Shown here piece after piece: positions 1-9,840 of a stretch of DNA of 64,000 nucleotides (its first letter is position 1; each line of letters starts with the position of its first letter). The notes under the pieces are model-generated. The model was not told where the DNA came from. It was given only the letters and a program-made list of their open reading frames with translations, and made no database searches. Position numbers and translations under genes: made by a program. The DNA is from a virus (taxonomy: Duplodnaviria > Caudoviricetes): the IMG/VR virus record IMGVR_UViG_3300037067_022526, positions 64,001 through 128,000 of that record; one strand, 5' to 3'.

Positions 1-878
1 AGAATCCACTGATAGGTAATGACCATTTGCAGACCAACAATGTGGGTATACCCGTAGCTAGTTGTTTCCACCCTCATATGATGAAAGTGCGATGCCTATC
101 CAGGTATTTGTCTCCCTCAGAATTATATAATAACGACGAAAAGTTTAAAGACGCCATCAATCGTTGTTTTGAATTGGGTAACAAACCAAACGAAGCGAAT
201 ATTCGCCGTATCCTCCGCACTCGTGACGGTGTCCGTAGTGCAGTTAATTTTAAGCCAGTTATAGCTAAATATATTTATCAGAACTATGCCCCCACCGGAG
301 GTAAGGTCCTCGACCCTTGCGCTGGCTACGGTGGCAGACTAACCGGACTTATCTCTACTAATAAAAACCTTCTCTATCACGGTATAGACCCCTGCCCAGA
401 GACCACAGTGGGTAACACCCAACTAGCAGCCTTCTATTCCCGCCTATACGAACCCATAACTAAAGAATTGCAGTGGAAGTTTAGGTTTCGTCACGATTTA
501 GGTTGCGCAGAGGATGTCTTGCCCACTTTGCCAGATAAAGAATATGATTTGGTCTTTACTTCGCCACCTTATTTTAATGTAGAACAATATGACACTTTGC
601 CTAATCAGAGCTACCTCAGATATCCTGATTATGAGTCCTGGCGGGATAAATTCTTATCTGTTTTAATCAAAGAATCTTGCCGGGTCTCCAAGCAGTATGT
701 AGTATTAAATGTTAAAAACTATAAGAGCTATCCGATAGCAGACGATGCTCTAAAGTTTGCGGAGCAAATGGGATATGGAATACATAAGACTTACCAAATG
801 AGATTAGCCAATAGCGAATTTCACAGAAGAGAGAGTGAACCGACATATCATGTTGAACCTATTTATGTGTTGTTGTGA
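1..878 (+). CDS. DNA amino-methyltransferase (N4-C/N6-A type), 5'-truncated by window edge
   Basis: SAM-binding motif DPCAGYGGR and catalytic FTSPPY; frame is open back to the window edge; stop codon lies inside the degenerate terminal CRISPR repeat. Confidence 0.85.
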   Translation, partial: NPLIGNDHLQTNNVGIPVASCFHPHMMKVRCLSRYLSPSELYNNDEKFKDAINRCFELGNKPNEANIRRILRTRDGVRSAVNFKPVIAKYIYQNYAPTGGKVLDPCAGYGGRLTGLISTNKNLLYHGIDPCPETTVGNTQLAAFYSRLYEPITKELQWKFRFRHDLGCAEDVLPTLPDKEYDLVFTSPPYFNVEQYDTLPNQSYLRYPDYESWRDKFLSVLIKESCRVSKQYVVLNVKNYKSYPIADDALKFAEQMGYGIHKTYQMRLANSEFHRRESEPTYHVEPIYVLL

Positions 879-1239
879 TTCACTCCCCTCCCCTTCATAG
901 AGGAGAATCACCGATAATTGGGTGTTACCCACTACGGTTTCGTTGCAATTCACTCCCCTTTTCAGGGGAGAAACACCGTGGCATAAGGAGAAACAGCAGT
1001 GGCAAAGGTTGCAATTCACTCCCCTTTTCAGGGGAGAAACACCATTGGCGCATTGTTCTGTTGCCATGTCGTTGTTGCAATTCACTCCCCTTTTCAGGGG
1101 AGAAACACCCATCGAGTGATGTAGCGGTGAAAGCGTCGGTTGCAATTCACTCCCCTTTTCAGGGGAGAAACACCTTTATCTTTGCTGCTGCGTGGCCGTG
1201 GCCGTTGCAATTCACTCCCCTTTTCAGGGGAGAAACACC
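872..1239 (-). CRISPR. CRISPR array 1: five identical 36-nt repeats plus one degenerate trailer repeat, five spacers of 29-30 nt
   Basis: Repeats at 942, 1008, 1074, 1139 and 1204; minus-strand sequence GGTGTTTCTCCCCTGAAAAGGGGAGTGAATTGCAAC (hairpin CTCCCCT-GAAA-AGGGGAG plus 11-nt 3' tail); degenerate copy at 872-912. Confidence 0.98.
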
Positions 1240-1384
1240 CGAGCACTCATAACTTGATATAATTCAGCACCTTATGAGTATTCAGGGTCACAAATTTTGA
1301 GTCGCCCAATTCACTTTTCAAAGAACACTTCCCATTTTCTACGAATTCTCAGTATATTGTACTTGCTCTGCTGCTAAAAGTCAA
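1240..1384 (-). promoter_or_regulatory. Leader and sigma70 promoter of array 1
   Basis: About 110 nt homologous to the array 2 leader; minus-strand TTGACT(1384-1379)-17 nt-TACAAT(1361-1356). Confidence 0.8.
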
Positions 1385-3687
1385 ATCAATTCTTCCATGT
1401 ATCCCAAAAATTCAGTATCGTATTTTCCTGACCACACACACATTCCAGGTATTTTTTCATAGGGTTTAGTATAGTTTAAAATCGTTTTAATATTGCCTTC
1501 GAAAATTTGTACACTATTTCTAACTATATCTGTCGATGTTGGATATTCGATATTATCTATGTTTTCTGGTTTAACTATAACAGTTATTTTATTATTAGGT
1601 ATAACCTGATAAATGTCACCAACATCTTTCATGTATTTTTTTTGTTCAAAGCTCATTAAGCTCCCGATTGTAACAACTTTGTTATTTAAATTGCCAACTA
1701 CATTAAGATTGCCTATTTCATCTTCCATTGCTTCTGCGCAATGTTCTGGTCCTATTTTTCCGAGAGCGTAATATTCTCGAAAAATTTTTGCTCCATCTCT
1801 GAATTCTTTGTTTTCAGTAAAATCATCTAAATCTAACTCGAAAACGTATAGTGTGGAATCATTAAAGACATTATCTCGATTGATTCGACCAGCCAATTGC
1901 AAAGCACTATTTAAATTGCAGTTTTCTCTGAAACCATTTCTGAAAGAAATGTTTATTCCAGATTCTATGCACGATGTTGCAATTAATATGAAATTCTCAT
2001 CGGAACTTAATCGTGATTTGATATCTTCTAATATGACCTCTCGATCTGTAGCACAAAGTGCTGTGGACATGTGTAATACATGTTCACGCCCAATTATCTT
2101 TGATATTGTTTTTGCAACCAATGCTGCGTTTTTGACAGTGTTAAAAACCGCTACTACCGGACCTTTGCTGCGCTCATTTATAACAGCATTACAAATTTGG
2201 GGTAAAGATAGTTTATTCCAATGCCCGTTATCTTGTATGCCGCCTAATTGCTTTATTGTAACTCTGGATTTTTCTTGTTTAAGAGTTATCTCTGAAATCT
2301 CTGGTGGAACTATAGATGGGACATTATAATCAAAACCATCTAAGACATATTTTCTAAATCGCTTGATTTCCCAAGGCTTCGTCATAGACCCAGACACAAA
2401 CAGTACTCGGCATCCCATATTTTCAACTAACCATTTTAAGTAATATAATGTAAGTGGCCACAATTTTGAGGGCAGGCAACAATGAGACTCGTCAAAAATA
2501 ATGAATTTACCGGCTAAATTGAGATACTTTCTAAGCTTTTTAGGTGTGTATCCAGCCAAAGTTTCACAAAATTGTACTGCGGTTGTGCAGGTAATTGGAC
2601 AATTCCATGTCTGTGTATAAAGTTTTGCGGATAGATCATGTTCAAAATCTACTCCAAGATGATGCTCTGCAACGGTTAATTTATCATCTTCTTCGGGCAA
2701 AACAATTGCTTTTCTATAAGTGTCTGCAGTTTGGCTAATAATATTAGTATAAGGTGCAACATAAATTATACCTGACATATTATTAGTATTAACAGTATGT
2801 AAAGCATATGCCAAAGATGATAAAGTTTTGCCATTACCAACTTCACTAGCAAGATATGTAAATGATGCGGAAATTTCTGAATGTCTACACGATTGATATA
2901 TAGCTTGCCTTATTTTGTTCCTCTCGGTTTCTGCTGAAAAGCTACTAACATATTTATCTAGTTGTAGTAATCTTTCATTTGCTTTTATTGGGATTGTGTC
3001 TTCTACTATGAAGTTCTTGTAATTTTTAGCAGTGTCATAGTAGTCTGCTGTTACGAGTACGCTTAATGCTAATCTTGATAGTGGAGCACTAATATTCTTG
3101 TTATAATTCATTCCGCTTTTCAGAGGAGAAACACTTAGGGGTTCAACTAAATTTATTTCTTTTTTATGAAGTTCCATTAGCTTGTCTAATTTTGCATCGA
3201 CATATTCGCTCATGAGCATGTCTGTTTCTTTTACCCACGGACATCTTTCCCCTAGTAAATTATTATCTCGAAGGTCATCGTATAGATTTTTTTGGTATCC
3301 GAGATGATGAGCGAAAACAAGCCATGCTGCGTACCTATATTGATCTGATAAAGACATGTTCCCGTTTTGTGCTGCCTTGTCACATTGACTTATCAGATAA
3401 GACACACCGGCATCAACATGATTTGGCATTTTACAATTTAATACTTTACCACTTAAAACCATTTGACAATAAGGATCAAGCTTCCCTGTGTCATGGTACA
3501 AAATTGCGGTTAATAAATGACATTTTAGAAAATTATAATGATCTTCTGATATGAATGATTTTAATTTTTCTATTTCTTGCTCTGCTTTTAAGTATACACC
3601 AGATATATGATCAATAAAAGATTGTTCTGGAATGTTTCTTTCCAAATCTGCTGAATGGGCTAAGTTACAATTCACTCTACTTTTCAT
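1381..3687 (-). CDS. cas3: Cas3 HD nuclease-helicase (type I-C-like)
   Basis: HD motifs AHS..DH, YHDTGK, AHH; SF2 motifs VGNGKT, YVAPYTNII, FDESH, FNTV, LQLAGRINR; CRISPR context. Confidence 0.95.
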   Translation of the reverse strand: MKSRVNCNLAHSADLERNIPEQSFIDHISGVYLKAEQEIEKLKSFISEDHYNFLKCHLLTAILYHDTGKLDPYCQMVLSGKVLNCKMPNHVDAGVSYLISQCDKAAQNGNMSLSDQYRYAAWLVFAHHLGYQKNLYDDLRDNNLLGERCPWVKETDMLMSEYVDAKLDKLMELHKKEINLVEPLSVSPLKSGMNYNKNISAPLSRLALSVLVTADYYDTAKNYKNFIVEDTIPIKANERLLQLDKYVSSFSAETERNKIRQAIYQSCRHSEISASFTYLASEVGNGKTLSSLAYALHTVNTNNMSGIIYVAPYTNIISQTADTYRKAIVLPEEDDKLTVAEHHLGVDFEHDLSAKLYTQTWNCPITCTTAVQFCETLAGYTPKKLRKYLNLAGKFIIFDESHCCLPSKLWPLTLYYLKWLVENMGCRVLFVSGSMTKPWEIKRFRKYVLDGFDYNVPSIVPPEISEITLKQEKSRVTIKQLGGIQDNGHWNKLSLPQICNAVINERSKGPVVAVFNTVKNAALVAKTISKIIGREHVLHMSTALCATDREVILEDIKSRLSSDENFILIATSCIESGINISFRNGFRENCNLNSALQLAGRINRDNVFNDSTLYVFELDLDDFTENKEFRDGAKIFREYYALGKIGPEHCAEAMEDEIGNLNVVGNLNNKVVTIGSLMSFEQKKYMKDVGDIYQVIPNNKITVIVKPENIDNIEYPTSTDIVRNSVQIFEGNIKTILNYTKPYEKIPGMCVWSGKYDTEFLGYMEELI

Positions 3688-4161
3688 GGAAGAAACACCT
3701 CAATAGTAAGACTTTCAGTTGTAATTCACTCCACTTTTCAAAAGGGGAGAAACACCACGCCCGCCGATCTTTCCGCCGTCGGTTCCGTTACAATTCACTC
3801 TCTTTTTTCAGGAGAGAAACATCAAGTGTCAGCGTCATGTTGCAAGTCTTTCAAAAAATTAGTTGTAATTCACTCCCCCTTTCGGGGGAGAAACACCTCG
3901 TGATTTATGTTACCTATGCACTCGGCGGTTGCAATTCACTCCCCCTTTCGGGGGAGAAACACCTATACCCGAGTGGGGTACAGAAGTTGGCGTGTTGCAA
4001 TTCACTCCCCCTTTCGGGGGAGAAACACCCCCGCTCGTATAACATACCGTAACTGCCAGGTTGCAATTCACTCCCCCTTTCGGGGGAGAAACACCCGTCC
4101 TGAGAATCAAGCAATGCTAGGTCTAGTTGCAATTCACTCCCCCTTTCGGGGGAGAAACACC
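3664..4161 (-). CRISPR. CRISPR array 2: five near-identical repeats plus three degenerate trailer repeats
   Basis: Repeats at 3862 (one mismatch), 3928, 3994, 4060 and 4126, minus-strand GGTGTTTCTCCCCCGAAAGGGGGAGTGAATTGCAAC, with 30-nt spacers; degenerate copies at 3664, 3718 and 3787 with 18-, 30- and 38-nt spacers. Confidence 0.97.
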
Positions 4162-4271
4162 CGAGCACTCATAACTTGGTATAATTCAACACTTTATGAG
4201 TGTTTAGGGTCACAAATTTTGAGATATTTGGTTTACTTTTCAAAGAACGCCTCTCGTTTTTTGCGAATTCT
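4162..4271 (-). promoter_or_regulatory. Leader of array 2
   Basis: Homologous to 1240-1349; inverted repeat ACTCATAA/TTATGAGT around an IHF-like site (ATTCAACACTTTA). Confidence 0.75.
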
Positions 4272-5250
4272 AGCTCAGATCATGTACTTCAAAACTGAAT
4301 CCACATTCCGCAGCATTGGGTACATTGTAATCACTTAGACATATTGGTTTGTCGTTTTTTGCAGTAGGCTTAAGATTATTTATAAATTCAGTTTCTTTGA
4401 AACTTCCAATAGTATTAGAATGGTCTGCCCACCAAACATGTTGTAAATTCATCGAACCCGATGGACGTGCACACGAAGACGATGTTTCGAAAATATGTGG
4501 TAGTATTTTCTTAAGAATATCAATATCTTCTTGGGCAGCATTGGTCAGATGGGCACAATGCGGGTTGACGGAAATTAGTTGATAATACATGCCGTGACGA
4601 ATAAATTTTAGCGCATTTGGACCTATATCTCCAGAAGGATCTTTATCTTTGATCGTTCTTCCTGTATCTGTTGCCAGATGATCTGCGCTTAATGGCGACT
4701 TTTTTGTAACACTTGCCTCGATAATTTCCACTGGCGCAATTGAACACCCGACACCAATCGAAACACATCCAGTACGAACAAATCGAGGTTCTTCTTTCTT
4801 TTCCTTCTCTAGCCCATCTGGTAGAGCTGTTGTTCCGAAAATCCTGACATCAAAATATCGATTTAAAAAGGCTTCAGGGTCAGACTTGGCTAGCGCCATT
4901 GCTTTTCTGGCACATTCAAGCTCTGATGTTCCAGCGTACCCTTTGTTGCGGCTTTCAAATACATACAATCGTTCAGGGTCAAGATTGTCTCTCTTTACAA
5001 AATCCTTGAAAACCGGATTATCATGATCGGACAAGAAATCCCTGATCTTCCTTTTAATAGACATTGGTGATACCCACCCATATCCATCTGGAAATGTGCG
5101 TGGAGCATTTCCTACATCCGGGTCTCCGTTGGGATTTCCACAAATTACTTCATACACTAGCATTCCAACACTGCGATTCAATTGATACATTTTTTTCTCC
5201 AAAGTTGAATTTTCTGTTACGATCGTTTCTGATTTAATTGACTTATTCAT
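4270..5250 (-). CDS. cas7: Cas7 (Csd2-type) backbone subunit
   Basis: NPNGDPD..NAPR and SIKRKIRD motifs, FDVRIFG; start moved to ATG 5250 (GGAG SD, overlaps the cas8 stop). Confidence 0.93.
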   Translation of the reverse strand: MNKSIKSETIVTENSTLEKKMYQLNRSVGMLVYEVICGNPNGDPDVGNAPRTFPDGYGWVSPMSIKRKIRDFLSDHDNPVFKDFVKRDNLDPERLYVFESRNKGYAGTSELECARKAMALAKSDPEAFLNRYFDVRIFGTTALPDGLEKEKKEEPRFVRTGCVSIGVGCSIAPVEIIEASVTKKSPLSADHLATDTGRTIKDKDPSGDIGPNALKFIRHGMYYQLISVNPHCAHLTNAAQEDIDILKKILPHIFETSSSCARPSGSMNLQHVWWADHSNTIGSFKETEFINNLKPTAKNDKPICLSDYNVPNAAECGFSFEVHDLS

Positions 5251-5716
5251 TGTTTTCTCCATTCGGATTTTCCACAGACACTTTTTCAAGATCAACACCG
5301 ATCTCTGACTTGACTGATTTTGGCGACCTATAAGCATATCCCATTTCCAGGAGTATTTTATAAATATCAGGATCAAACTCATTAAATTGGTTAACGCTCT
5401 TAAATTGATTATTATGTAAATCAGGCATTATATTCATAAGTTTACTAATTATTTCTTTATATTCTCTGATTGGCAAATAACCATGTTTATATGGCTCTTT
5501 TTCTTTGCGAATATAATTTTCTGCCCAACATTCGTACTTAGAAAAGTTTCCTATAAATGTTCCTAGCGCTCGTTTTGGAAATTTATATGCTTGCTGTATA
5601 TATTCTTGTCCGATAAGCTTTTGAGGTTCATTTATCCCTCTACTCTTAAAATATATTCGGTGAATATTGTTTGCTTGACTAAATAATTGTCCCATTAAAA
5701 ACGGCACACTGTTCAT
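5243..5716 (-). CDS. cas11: Cas11 small subunit translated internally from cas8
   Basis: In-frame ATG 5716 preceded by AAGGAG (5728-5723) at 6-nt spacing; MNSVPFLMGQLF motif; internal Cas11 translation is established for type I-C. Confidence 0.7.
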   Translation of the reverse strand: MNSVPFLMGQLFSQANNIHRIYFKSRGINEPQKLIGQEYIQQAYKFPKRALGTFIGNFSKYECWAENYIRKEKEPYKHGYLPIREYKEIISKLMNIMPDLHNNQFKSVNQFNEFDPDIYKILLEMGYAYRSPKSVKSEIGVDLEKVSVENPNGENNE

Positions 5717-7186
5717 GATCATCTCCTTTGTAAAACCATTTTTACTCAAAACAATCCCCGAAATTGGCACCAGCCATTGCCGTTCATACGGCATTTTTTC
5801 TAATTTACCATCAGAACACTCAATTAGCATTTTGGTATGATTTTTTGCAAATATGCGAGTAACTTTTTTAATTGCTTTTTCGTTTTCGAAAAAGAAGTCG
5901 TATATATCTGAAATTGTTATATACTCTCGCTCTATAATAGATGATATTTTATTACGATCATTTTTCCATATTTTATTAATACATTTAGAAAAATTAGAAA
6001 TAGTTGGCGGGAGAAATTTGCCTTTGCAAACAAATTTAGACGGACGAGTTGATGTTCCGGATACCCATTTGTTTACACAATTAGCAATATTTTTTCCATT
6101 CATTTCTTTATGATATTTAATTTGACACGCACCATTTTTGGGTATAAATAGGACAAAAATTGAACATTGAAATGGTGTTTTATTAATCTCACCGTTTAAC
6201 ATGTGAACAATCTTTTTGCCCTCTGCCTCCCATTGTTCAATATCCATTTGGTTGGATTCTTCTGTTCGACCCTCAATCCAGTCAGATGAAGGTGATAGAG
6301 TAGTAATAACCAAATCTCTTCCGTTGTCTTTTTGGATATAATACCAGAGACCATTTCGAGTGCCTTCTTTTCCTAAATTGTTATAATAAAAATTCTCAGA
6401 TACAATAGAATTGATGATTTTCAGTATTTGTTTGCGAGTAGAATTTCCGATTTTGCACGCATTTACACCAGACATGCCAAATCGTTCATAGCATTCATTA
6501 TCCTCATTTTTAGAATAAAGTTTTATTGTGCCGACGCCGCAAGGGAGCTTGGTTTCAAATGTTTTTGATTTATTTTCCCACCCATCGGCAGGATTGTTGA
6601 GTATGTCGATATCGATAGATGAGTTTGTTTGTTTAGAAATAAGCCAATCATTCACCACCTTCATTGACTCACTATTTTGAACCTTATTGGAAAATTTTAA
6701 TTGTTTCCAATCTGGAATGTCTAGAGAAAAATAACAACTTTTGATCTTTTTATCTTGTTGTGAAATAAAGTCATCTAATTTGTTCATTAAAGCATTTGGA
6801 TCAATTCGAGATAATCTATTGGATAATTCTTTGAAAGCACAAAACCTATCTTGATCATCTATATGTTTAGATATATCGGAATGGCAATATAAATGATGTT
6901 TAATTCCATTCAGTCTTTTCTTAGAATCTTTATTAGTGTCATATTTGAAAGTAAATCCAGATGCAAAATTAGAGTATTTAAAATATCTAAGATCGGAAGC
7001 AGACTCAGACTCAAAAGGTTCGATAGCGATATCAAGATTCTTATCAATTAATATAAGAAAACGTTGACCGTTATTATTTTTGGGCATTTGTGGATGCCAC
7101 GTTGTATCGTTTGTGTTTGATAAATCCCCAATATTCAGACCCCAGCTTTTTAAACTTTCTTCAATTGATAATATTTCATGCAACAT
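5243..7186 (-). CDS. cas8c: Divergent Cas8c (Csd1)-like large subunit
   Basis: Position between cas5 and cas7, 647 aa, C-terminal PFLMGQLFSQANNIH resembles the Cas11c region; N-terminal part not recognisable by eye. Confidence 0.75.
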   Translation of the reverse strand: MLHEILSIEESLKSWGLNIGDLSNTNDTTWHPQMPKNNNGQRFLILIDKNLDIAIEPFESESASDLRYFKYSNFASGFTFKYDTNKDSKKRLNGIKHHLYCHSDISKHIDDQDRFCAFKELSNRLSRIDPNALMNKLDDFISQQDKKIKSCYFSLDIPDWKQLKFSNKVQNSESMKVVNDWLISKQTNSSIDIDILNNPADGWENKSKTFETKLPCGVGTIKLYSKNEDNECYERFGMSGVNACKIGNSTRKQILKIINSIVSENFYYNNLGKEGTRNGLWYYIQKDNGRDLVITTLSPSSDWIEGRTEESNQMDIEQWEAEGKKIVHMLNGEINKTPFQCSIFVLFIPKNGACQIKYHKEMNGKNIANCVNKWVSGTSTRPSKFVCKGKFLPPTISNFSKCINKIWKNDRNKISSIIEREYITISDIYDFFFENEKAIKKVTRIFAKNHTKMLIECSDGKLEKMPYERQWLVPISGIVLSKNGFTKEMIMNSVPFLMGQLFSQANNIHRIYFKSRGINEPQKLIGQEYIQQAYKFPKRALGTFIGNFSKYECWAENYIRKEKEPYKHGYLPIREYKEIISKLMNIMPDLHNNQFKSVNQFNEFDPDIYKILLEMGYAYRSPKSVKSEIGVDLEKVSVENPNGENNE

Positions 7187-7203: not shown

Positions 7204-7887
7204 TTATTTATTTAAATTTTCGTTTTCAAACTTTAGAATTCCATTGGCTGCGATTACTTTCTCGGGACCAAGTTGTAAAATTCCATGAGCGATTCGCAAA
7301 GTTTCTGTTATTGGAAATTGCATAATATATCCATTTTTTTTGTCAAAATATTGTAGGACATATCCGTGTAAAATTTCATTATAATCAGAAATTATGGGAG
7401 TTATAGGTAATCCGACATAATCAGAAAAAAAGTCGCTCGGACCAAGTGTCGGCATTCGATAATATTGTTCTTTACTTAATCGACGATAAAATTGATCGCG
7501 ATATGAATGGGCACAATTAATATGTGCGTATTTTGGGTGAGGTGGTTCTACGGTAGACCTTTTGGCGGTTGCACAAATTTGAAATCTAGGGCGAAGCAAA
7601 GCTGTAGCTTTTATTTGACATGCATTTCCATCTCTTTTCTGTCCTTCTTTTCGAATTGATGACCACGAATTAAAAGCATAATCTAAATATTCTGGTCGGT
7701 GACATATCCCGATAGCTTCTATTTGTATGGATGCACTTTTAACTCTTAAAATTGACTGCATTATACCAAATGCCGCAGTGGGCGTAGGAACTGGATAACT
7801 ACATGGTTCTGATCCGCTATCAGGTCTGGCGAACATGCCTATGGGTCCGCCAACCTCGAATATGATTCCGTAAGATTTCTGGTACAT
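7204..7887 (-). CDS. cas5: Cas5 (Cas5d-type, likely the crRNA-processing nuclease)
   Basis: EVGGPIGMFARPD..SYPVPTPTAAFGI motif; start at ATG 7887 after AAGGAG; no cas6 present. Confidence 0.92.
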   Translation of the reverse strand: MYQKSYGIIFEVGGPIGMFARPDSGSEPCSYPVPTPTAAFGIMQSILRVKSASIQIEAIGICHRPEYLDYAFNSWSSIRKEGQKRDGNACQIKATALLRPRFQICATAKRSTVEPPHPKYAHINCAHSYRDQFYRRLSKEQYYRMPTLGPSDFFSDYVGLPITPIISDYNEILHGYVLQYFDKKNGYIMQFPITETLRIAHGILQLGPEKVIAANGILKFENENLNK

Positions 7888-7936: not shown

Positions 7937-7973
7937 GCGAGAGATATTAGATTTTTTAAAAATATTCGTGGCC

Positions 7974-8002
7974 TTGACAATTTACGTAGCAGGCAATATA
8001 AT
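7974..8002 (+). promoter_or_regulatory. Consensus sigma70 promoter, divergent from the cas operon
   Basis: TTGACA-17-TATAAT. Confidence 0.88.
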
Positions 8003-8011
8003 GGATTGTAA

Positions 8012-8046
8012 GATGTTTCTCCCCTAAAAAGGGAGTGAATTGCAAC
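8012..8046 (+). repeat. Solitary CRISPR repeat (array-type)
   Basis: GATGTTTCTCCCCTAAAAAGGGAGTGAATTGCAAC, intact 11-nt 3' handle, 9 nt after the -10 box. Confidence 0.9.
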
Positions 8047-8068
8047 GTGATGATGTCGAGGAAATCAG

Positions 8069-8353
8069 ATGTGGAATTTGACAGAACACGCAAAACCGGT
8101 CACCGGAGAAGAATCTTTAGTAATTTATACTTGTCCGCAATTTCTTGAGGACGAACATCCTGGTATATATTACATACACGAAGCATACTGTATACACAAT
8201 GGTTTCTGTCGTTATTACCCGGATGAAGGTTGGTTCTGTGGGGATAATAAAATGCCAGAACCCGTAGCGTGGATCCGTCCCGAAAAATTGTTAGAGTATT
8301 TTTTGACGCAACTACCCAGCAAAGATCAGTCAGCTACAACACCTTTCAGATAA
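8069..8353 (+). CDS. Hypothetical protein, paralog of 13268..13519
   Basis: Shared MWNLT..AKPV.GE.SLVIY and WFCGD..MPEP.AW.RPEKLLE motifs. Confidence 0.75.
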   Translation: MWNLTEHAKPVTGEESLVIYTCPQFLEDEHPGIYYIHEAYCIHNGFCRYYPDEGWFCGDNKMPEPVAWIRPEKLLEYFLTQLPSKDQSATTPFR

Positions 8354-9252
8354 TCAGATATCGCAGTCCTGATGATATCTACGTAAGAAATTTCACAGTC
8401 ATTTTCATATGCTTGCTTGCGGGCAACTCTTTTTAATTGTTCTAATTGATCACTCAAAATTCGGATGCTGATTGTGATATTCTCAACGACATTTTGAAAT
8501 TTCGACCCAAATTCACATCCGAAATCGCCATCAGACATATGTTGGTTTTCTTGCCGCAGCATCTCTTCGGTATAATCGGTATTCACTTCCCATGTGGGTA
8601 GTTGGCATATCAACCTGTAATCAGGTGCAGTTGAAATTAAATTATATAATAAATCGCCTTTGCGCCTTGGTGACGAGACTATAATAGTTCGTGATTCATG
8701 CACTCCGTCATGTTTGAAGTCGGCAGTGCTGGGAATCAATGCATTATAAATTCTATCACCCGACTGCCCTGGAAATGACGCGATCTCATTGAATACAAGA
8801 GTGAAATATCGCTTGCCCAGGAGATTTGAACTATTGGCGTGAGCAACCATTAAACAAATGTATCCTGATCGATTCCGCCTTGGCAACCAAATTTTGTTCT
8901 GCTCTATTTTGGTTATCTCATCTCGAAAATACTCAGATCGAGTAACAAGCAGTTTCAACTCCGTGAAGAAAGATCTTGCCTCCTCTGCACTATTACAAAC
9001 AGCAAGCTGATAAATCGTGTCCTGGTTTGGGATATTATAATATTCAAACGGATTTGGTATTTCTAATAGTCGCCGTGTCTCTGCCAGTAGCAGCAGTGTA
9101 GCAAGATAATCCTTTCCGCTACGTCTTCCCAAAACGGCAACTAACTCTCGGTATTGTCCAATATAGAAGTTGGACATGATTTCTTTTAACCTCGGATATA
9201 ACTTAATGTTAGGTGTAATTAAATATTGCTCGATAAATTCCATTGAAGTCAT
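8326..9252 (-). CDS. Terminase-large-subunit-like ATPase domain fused to a C-terminal ribbon-helix-helix domain
   Basis: GRRSGK Walker A, LVFNEIA (Walker B with D to N), IVSSP, LPTWEVN; no nuclease domain; RHH ISIRI..LKRVAR..SYVDIIR; start at 9252 with GAAAGGAG SD. Confidence 0.75.
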   Translation of the reverse strand: MTSMEFIEQYLITPNIKLYPRLKEIMSNFYIGQYRELVAVLGRRSGKDYLATLLLLAETRRLLEIPNPFEYYNIPNQDTIYQLAVCNSAEEARSFFTELKLLVTRSEYFRDEITKIEQNKIWLPRRNRSGYICLMVAHANSSNLLGKRYFTLVFNEIASFPGQSGDRIYNALIPSTADFKHDGVHESRTIIVSSPRRKGDLLYNLISTAPDYRLICQLPTWEVNTDYTEEMLRQENQHMSDGDFGCEFGSKFQNVVENITISIRILSDQLEQLKRVARKQAYENDCEISYVDIIRTAISDYLKGVVAD

Positions 9253-9358
9253 AAAAAGCTCCTTTCTACTAATACTTACTTCGCTGTCATAATTATTTCC
9301 TGTAAGAATTATGACAAAATTTACCACATAATACATTATACAGCGCAGGAGATGTGGA

Positions 9359-9583
9359 ATGTTTCTTCAATGAAGTGAATTGCAACTTGACAACTCCCAC
9401 AGCCAGCAGTATAATGAGCCGTAAGATGTTTCTCTTTTGAAAAGAGGAGTGAATTACACAACATGGTAGTGTGGATTTTACTCATCAATGCCATACTTTG
9501 TGCATTATTCTTCTTTTTCGGCGTTTTCTGCGGATGGAGTTTAAGCTCGGATATAGATGTTTCTCCCCTGAAAAGGGGAGTGA
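9359..9583 (+). repeat. Three degenerate or partial CRISPR repeats (mini-array-like)
   Basis: Copies at 9359-9386, 9425-9462 and 9556-9583 (the last has a perfect array-1 hairpin and lies inside an ORF). Confidence 0.8.
9387..9415 (+). promoter_or_regulatory. Consensus sigma70 promoter in spacer position
   Basis: TTGACA-17-TATAAT; homologous to 7974-8011. Confidence 0.85.
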
Positions 9584-9840
9584 TAAAAAATCATATTGCT
9601 GCCGGACAGAAGGGTGCAGAGCTTTTGCGTAATAAATTTGGACTTATTAATATAGAAACCAGATCGGAAAGATACCCCGAGTCCCAAAGTATATCTCCGC
9701 AAAAGGCCCTAGATTTATTAAATGTATCTTGTGTTTGGATATCCAAACCATCTCTTAATGTTGTCATAGAGACATCGACAGGGAATTACCGAGTGAGATT
9801 CAGTGAATTTGACCGATACTTTTTATGCGGAGACAAATAA
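9463..9840 (+). CDS. Hypothetical membrane-anchored protein
   Basis: Hydrophobic N-terminus; ATG directly follows a repeat; contains repeat-derived DVSPLKRGV. Confidence 0.55.
   Translation: MVVWILLINAILCALFFFFGVFCGWSLSSDIDVSPLKRGVIKNHIAAGQKGAELLRNKFGLINIETRSERYPESQSISPQKALDLLNVSCVWISKPSLNVVIETSTGNYRVRFSEFDRYFLCGDK

Follow-up and report, generated by a model that had tools for sequence, protein, structure and literature searches.

The leader-distal spacer of a CRISPR array in a phage genome is a genuine protospacer-derived copy of 29 nt from the DNA methyltransferase (MTase) gene that lies beside the array, and chance is excluded as the source of the match. From the character states shared among the available alleles, this spacer was most likely taken from the MTase allele of a sibling phage of an L008-like lineage, and not from the carrier phage itself. 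We hold it somewhat more probable than all other readings that a sibling-derived spacer in a phage-borne cassette guides interference against the MTase gene of sibling phages, with the carrier allele being spared.

The window (the whole stretch of DNA analyzed, 64,000 nt) is part of an IMG/VR virus record of 90,156 bases that is ~65% complete. This record is viral and phage-type genes were seen in it, which places the arrays in a viral genome. A contig of 137,762 bases is listed for the same proteins; the phage contig has a size of ~90-138 kb. The features at and around the target gene are as follows.

1..878, plus strand: 3' part of the MTase gene, 876 nt and stop (ORF; PHROG DNA methyltransferase hits)
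396..398, plus strand: flank at the PAM position, CCA (Pro codon); CCC in both sibling alleles
399..427, plus strand: resident protospacer-like site, 24/29 to the spacer, mismatches 3, 7, 8, 25 and 28
869..870, no strand: left cassette junction, where homology to the cassette-less L005, L008/L009 and X4 contig stops
872..912, minus strand: degenerate 41-nt repeat that ends array 1, in which 5 nt are duplicated (GGGGA type), still folding into a hairpin
913..941, minus strand: leader-distal spacer of array 1; crRNA sense equals the plus strand of the MTase gene

The original prediction described the spacer match correctly, as seen both by direct reading and by script. The reverse complement of spacer 913-941 is GAAACCGTAGTGGGTAACACCCAATTATC and positions 399-427 read GAGACCACAGTGGGTAACACCCAACTAGC; the two agree at 24 of 29 positions with a perfect 16-nt core (positions 9-24), mismatches 3, 7 and 8 are PAM-proximal, and the 5' flank is CCA. 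The predicted reading in frame, ETVVGNTQLS versus ETTVGNTQLA, was borne out as well, with the resident site at gene position 703, phase 0, codon 235. The spacer is of normal length (29 nt), the similarity stops at its edges and is thereby confined to the spacer, and the target site lies 486 nt away.

A chance resemblance between spacer and MTase site has the short length of the match in its favor and nothing else, and its probability is negligible. In 600 shuffled spacers, compared with both strands of the 90-kb record, the best match was at most 22/29, so a match of 24/29 is not expected by chance; over 300 shuffles the longest word shared with the record was at most 15 nt, and the 16-nt word was never reached. 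The ten other spacers had best matches of 17-21 within the same 90-kb record. Furthermore, the match is in frame, and it rises to 26/29 in two independent sibling alleles.

The target gene codes for a 393-aa DNA methyltransferase of the N6/N4 type and starts 303 nt before the window (L001:818-1999). Many homologues of this MTase carry PF01555, and the motifs DPCAGYGG and SPPY can be read from its translation. Its stop codon lies inside the terminal repeat, as had been claimed: TGA (876-878) occupies positions 5-7 of the degenerate repeat 872-912, and the last codons and the stop of the carrier MTase are supplied by this worn repeat of array 1. The junction at 869/870 is two bases before the repeat. 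Since homology to the cassette-less siblings stops at this junction, the cassette begins exactly at the end of the carrier MTase gene. It is laid out as cas5-cas8-cas7, array 2, cas3 and array 1, and has the following parts.

942..1239, minus strand: array 1, 36-nt repeat in five identical copies, with four more spacers (29-30 nt)
1240..1349, minus strand: leader of array 1, 93% identical to 4162-4271; promoter-like site 1321-1294
1381..3687, minus strand: cas3, HD domain and helicase, 768-aa ORF (profile hits; HD motif read)
3664..4161, minus strand: array 2, five good repeats at 3862-4161 and degenerate ones at 3664-3823
4162..4271, minus strand: leader of array 2; promoter-like site 4243-4216
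4270..5250, minus strand: cas7 (Csd2-like; PF05107 E 7e-42, TIGR02589 E 1.6e-37; gene call)
5243..7186, minus strand: large-subunit gene in the cas8 position, without a family hit
7204..7887, minus strand: cas5, weak Cas5d-type hit (PF09704 E 2e-5; TIGR01876 E 0.002, under cut-off)

Both arrays have in common a right-hand flank of ~110 nt that is 93% conserved and contains the same minus-strand promoter-like site. The degenerate repeats form the left ends of the arrays, and the repeat on the minus strand ends in GAATTGCAAC, similar to the ATTGAAAC tag that is typical of type I repeats. Together, the conserved flank, the promoter-like sites, the worn left ends and the repeat end argue that the arrays are read on the minus strand. 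It follows from this reading that spacer 913-941 is leader-distal, that its crRNA has plus-strand sense and that the PAM position is 396-398 (CCA). The flank, the promoter-like site and the worn left-end repeat thus agree with the earlier view of this spacer as the oldest of array 1. In the part of the terminal repeat that would give the 3' handle, the hairpin is retained, the change there being G-U-compatible, and maturation of a crRNA from this worn terminal unit appears possible. The arrays were identical in runs from two studies, with no turnover seen.

Within each array the repeat is uniform, and a compensatory pair in the repeat stem separates the arrays at 942-1239 and 3862-4161 (CCCCTTTTCAGGGG vs CCCCCTTTCGGGGG). 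The spacers (913-1203, 3756-4125) have an average G+C content of 51%, compared with 38.6% for the phage, with 16% of 30-mers in the genome reaching 50%. Most spacers probably come, to judge by this composition, from something other than close relatives of the carrier phage.

All cas hits are under the curated cut-offs, which points to a divergent type I-C-like system. For Cas7 the best NCBIfam match is TIGR02589 at 129.5 bits, under the cut-off of 182. A fused HD-helicase Cas3 is present (TIGR01596 HD E 7.6e-10, cas3_core E 5e-19 and PF22590, under curated cut-offs), and its HD motif is intact when read from the sequence. The 647-aa protein in the cas8 position matched no Pfam or NCBIfam family, Cas8c (Csd1) included, and had a single distant homologue, 28% identical, among 5.8 billion proteins; this homologue is on a 3-kb contig without an array, leaving no sister cassette to compare. 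No hits to cas1, cas2 or cas4 were obtained at E <= 1 in the 90-kb record, itself ~65% complete, and no cas6 was found in it. The gene content suggests that the cassette is a phage-borne, divergent type I-C-like interference set, adaptation-less within the 90-kb record. The type I-C PAM, 5'-TTC, is absent beside the protospacer, where the flank is CCA in the resident and CCC in the siblings; as this flank is a conserved Pro codon (CCN), the canonical TTC cannot be present.

Repeat-like sequences also occur outside the arrays. A 30/36 repeat-like stretch at 3100-3135 lies in frame within the part of cas3 that codes for the HD domain, where it encodes SVSPLKSGMNYN, and the start codon of cas3 lies inside a worn array 2 repeat (3664-3699, encoding MKSRVNCN). 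Because repeat-like stretches lie in cas3 and at its start, the cas3 mRNA may carry cleavage sites for Cas5. Solitary repeat copies in crRNA sense (7973-8047 and 9386-9460; also 9351-9385 and 9556-9591) are directly behind TTGACA-17-TATAAT promoters, and each solitary promoter-repeat unit is followed by a small ORF (8069-8353, 9463-9840). Homology to L005 in this region is limited to 9460-9556, both ends of which are edges of repeat-like units. Between the two promoter-repeat units is a 336-aa gene (8326-9336, minus strand) with a precomputed MJ0330_N Pfam tag, for which a Pfam scan gave no match at E <= 0.01.

Two close relatives of the MTase were present in public data. P0002 (83% amino acid identity) is on contig L005, which has no CRISPR-Cas and has other genes after the MTase; L005 is 86-87% identical to the carrier in nucleotides over the 9 kb upstream and 77% within the MTase gene. 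P0121 (91% amino acid identity), found as a cluster-mate of the resident MTase, is on L008 and L009, again without the cassette. The L005 protospacer reads CCC followed by GAAACCGCA and matches the spacer at 26/29, with mismatches 8, 25 and 28. That of L008/L009 reads CCC followed by GAAACCGTT and likewise matches at 26/29, with mismatches 9, 25 and 28 and positions 1-8 perfect. The carrier allele, at 24/29, is the worst match of the three. Positions 10-29 of the site are invariant among the resident, L005 and L008/L009 alleles, and the T residues of the spacer at positions 25 and 28 are absent from all three; these would reflect either a fourth source allele or decay of the trailer-end spacer along with its repeat.

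A contig with the L008 allele from a landfill run (X4) follows the window to position 869 and then continues with the letters that follow the MTase in L008. In public runs, the carrier phage was found in a groundwater run and a landfill run, and the sibling allele in another landfill run, in a neighboring ENA accession and in a JGI sample; carrier and sibling allele were not seen together in one run. Runs X3, X5 and X6, from which little or nothing was recovered, were left out of the evidence.

The mobile modules that flank the MTase gene differ among the three phages. In L008, a LAGLIDADG homing-endonuclease gene (L008:766-1761) abuts the MTase start and replaces the DUF7487 gene of the carrier, and another LAGLIDADG gene is found further upstream in L005 (6283-7173). 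After the MTase in L005 (L005:11200-11312), the stop codon is followed by TTGACA-17-TACAAT, and GAGTGAATTGAAATG, which resembles the repeat tail GAGTGAATTGCAAC, stands just before the ATG of the next gene.

We searched sequence collections for a perfect (29/29) MTase allele, which would read GAAACCGTA...CAATTATC. Neither the exact 29-mer of the spacer nor its codon-degenerate pattern gave hits in viral_contigs, and a looser pattern gave none in genome_contigs. The looser pattern had two hits in metagenome_contigs, both on a GC-rich contig in a frame opposite the real 1239-aa ORF; they reach 23/29 only by design of the pattern and were treated as chance. No 29/29 allele was thus present in any collection searched. 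The MTase protein had no close relative in viral_contigs. The CRISPR repeat pattern had 0 hits in genome_contigs and 0 in viral_contigs, revealing no host or sister array, and 22-mers of the two newest spacers had 0 hits in viral_contigs. Comparison of both arrays with cultured phages and plasmids gave one insignificant 32-nt match only, and none of the other spacers matched L005, L008 or L009. Without a second protospacer among these results, there was no basis for deriving the PAM of this system. The hope that a perfect-match MTase allele would yield the PAM was therefore disappointed in the viral, metagenome and genome collections alike.

The sibling alleles allow the direction of change to be read. 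The resident and L008 alleles are sisters (88.6% nucleotide identity) and L005 is the outgroup (77-78%). When polarized on L005, the variable codon was ancestrally GCA and changed on the L008 branch in the order GCA>GTA>GTT; the spacer has the intermediate, GTA. Thus the spacer has a derived state in common with the sibling branch, but none of the states derived in the carrier branch, and by parsimony a foreign origin saves one step over a self origin. The original prediction, that the spacer came from the allele of a close relative, is strengthened by this placement of the variable codon and by the two siblings that match at 26/29 versus 24/29 for the resident, one of them with a perfect PAM-proximal 8 nt; the lack of a perfect allele in the collections counts against it. 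The further proposal, that the resident allele escapes the spacer, has a weaker signal. Within -30 to +60 of the site, the only changes derived in the resident are at -1 (C>A), 3 (A>G) and 7 (G>A), and such a density of changes is reached by 3-6% of equally sized windows, so that their clustering at the PAM-proximal end is only suggestive of escape. The orthologous site of the carrier has changed, and its differences at -1, 3, 7 and 8 would be expected to block targeting.

Under the reading we favor, a minus-strand pre-crRNA would be cut by Cas5 and the guide loaded into a Cas5-Cas8-Cas7 complex. In a co-infected cell, this complex would pair with the template strand of the sibling MTase gene and recruit Cas3, and the carrier allele would be spared through its differences at -1, 3, 7 and 8, at the PAM-proximal end. 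Close linkage of the guide with the insensitive allele would keep recombination from separating them. It is established for type I-E that the complex requires a PAM and pairing throughout the seed (positions 1-5, 7 and 8), whereas distal mismatches are tolerated. If this seed rule holds here, the resident should be spared, the L008-type allele should be the best candidate target and the L005 allele should be intermediate. We infer the maturation of a crRNA from the worn terminal unit, a CCN-compatible PAM, interference itself and a selective reason for the adjacency; present activity is putative.

The main rival is an inert relic, which tells the same story of origin and denies present function: the spacer would come from an MTase allele of the clade and would now be a decaying trailer-end unit without a working guide. 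Such a relic may have come along with the cassette from a previous owner, be it a host array or another phage. We consider this unlikely, yet it is the alternative that deserves most attention. The terminal repeat has ~10 changes and a 5-nt duplication, compared with five identical other repeats in array 1; at positions 25 and 28 the spacer departs from all natural alleles within an otherwise invariant block; the record is without an adaptation module and the arrays are static across runs; and the flank is not a canonical PAM. On the other hand, the hairpin of the would-be 3' handle has been kept, the two private mismatches are PAM-distal, where type I-E is known to tolerate them and this system might do the same, and the carrier allele is the worst of the three precisely at the PAM-proximal end. 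A poorer candidate is a self-derived spacer, which would stem from the ancestral gene of the carrier itself, perhaps through adaptation that favors DNA near the array, with escape mutations following. The short distance of 486 nt to the target and the escape-like look of the resident changes at -1, 3 and 7 are what this reading would predict, but T8 is common to the spacer and the L008 branch and not found in the resident or the outgroup, which costs one extra convergent change, and no cas1/2/4 was seen in the record. We thus give self-derivation a low probability.

The original prediction had also offered a non-cleaving self-regulator, in which a partly matching crRNA tunes the expression of the resident MTase. 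Complementarity to the resident gene is indeed partial, repeat-like units are found behind promoters elsewhere in the locus, and type I loci often contain regulatory cr-like RNAs (PMC10120712). However, mismatches 3, 7 and 8 are in the seed, and known regulators have a matched seed and a flanking PAM and are directed to promoters (PMC10120712). Moreover, the site is 703 nt inside the ORF, at codon 235, the crRNA is in mRNA sense and so unable to pair with the transcript, and siblings without the cassette match better than the supposed target. Because the mismatches are in the seed and the target is inside the coding region, this idea is not supported, and we regard it as very improbable. It is also conceivable, at long odds, that the whole cassette is an RNA-guided homing or drive element: the trailer guide would cut the sibling MTase gene in co-infection, and repair from the carrier genome would copy the insensitive allele together with the adjacent cassette, in the manner of free-standing homing endonucleases. 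What speaks for homing is the layout, namely the junction at the gene end, the cassette-less siblings and the LAGLIDADG gene beside the MTase in L008. Identity between resident and L008 is 91% on the 5' side of the site and falls to 85% on its 3' side. Homing, if true, would explain why the target abuts the cassette, why the junction is at the gene end and why the carrier differs at the PAM-proximal end. The adjacency also fits linkage, by which guide and insensitive allele must not be separated in mosaic phages. Linkage and homing are non-exclusive, and both would fit the anatomy of the cassette.

The general phenomenon has been described before, and interference by a sibling-derived guide, our preferred reading, would extend the known pattern of virus-borne CRISPR directed against close relatives. 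What this case adds is real sibling alleles and an argument from polarity. It is a clean natural example that offers both the guide and actual sibling alleles and lets the direction of change be followed, and most reported cases come without a sibling allele. The pattern is seen here in a phage that brings its own complete and very divergent type I interference complex. The system can be tested in a surrogate host for its PAM, its seed rules and whether the adjacency serves linkage or homing.

The closest parallels are the Saccharolobus portogloboviruses SPV1 and SPV2, whose virus-borne mini-CRISPR arrays act in interviral conflict (Medvedeva et al. 2019, PMC6858448). In virus-borne arrays of this kind the orthologous site of the carrier is mutated and the targets are close to the arrays, a closeness that was called unexplained (PMC6858448). 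As far as the account in the same source goes, the mini-arrays of phages and prophages reported by Faure et al. 2019 hit adjacent genes of relatives and not of the carrier (PMC6858448). The present case has the viral genome, the point-changed carrier site and the target beside the array in common with these, and its spacer matches close relatives imperfectly. It differs in having its own cas3, cas5, cas8-like and cas7 genes and two leader-bearing arrays of 4-5 spacers. SPV-type arrays also have 100% matches to siblings, compared with a best match of 26/29 here, as well as reciprocal targeting and co-occurrence in one sample, neither of which was seen in our case.

Type I-C variants without Cas1 and Cas2 are known from huge phages, where compact arrays have spacers that hit other phages (Al-Shayeb et al. 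2020, PMC7162821). Type I-C-like effectors without adaptation genes, compact arrays and spacers proposed to act against competing phages are shared with the cassette described here. In contrast to those variants, the HD-helicase Cas3 is kept here and the large subunit is nearly an orphan, with 36-nt repeats, 29-30-nt spacers and a phage contig of ~90-138 kb. Regulatory cr-like RNAs and mini-arrays (CreA-type, and guides to cas8 promoters) are seed-matched, PAM-flanked and promoter-aimed (Shmakov et al. 2023, PMC10120712). As with these RNAs, our spacer is partly complementary to a resident gene; it departs from them in its mismatched seed and in a site far inside an ORF.

In T-even phages, free-standing homing endonucleases bring about intronless homing and marker exclusion. 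Unlike these enzymes, the cassette here is RNA-guided and multi-subunit, with a processive Cas3, and copying of the cassette is hypothetical. The two are alike in that a nuclease cassette lies beside the gene that is recognized in cassette-less relatives and in that the carrier allele would be insensitive through its polymorphisms, and the likeness extends to the LAGLIDADG gene that flanks the very same MTase in the sibling L008.
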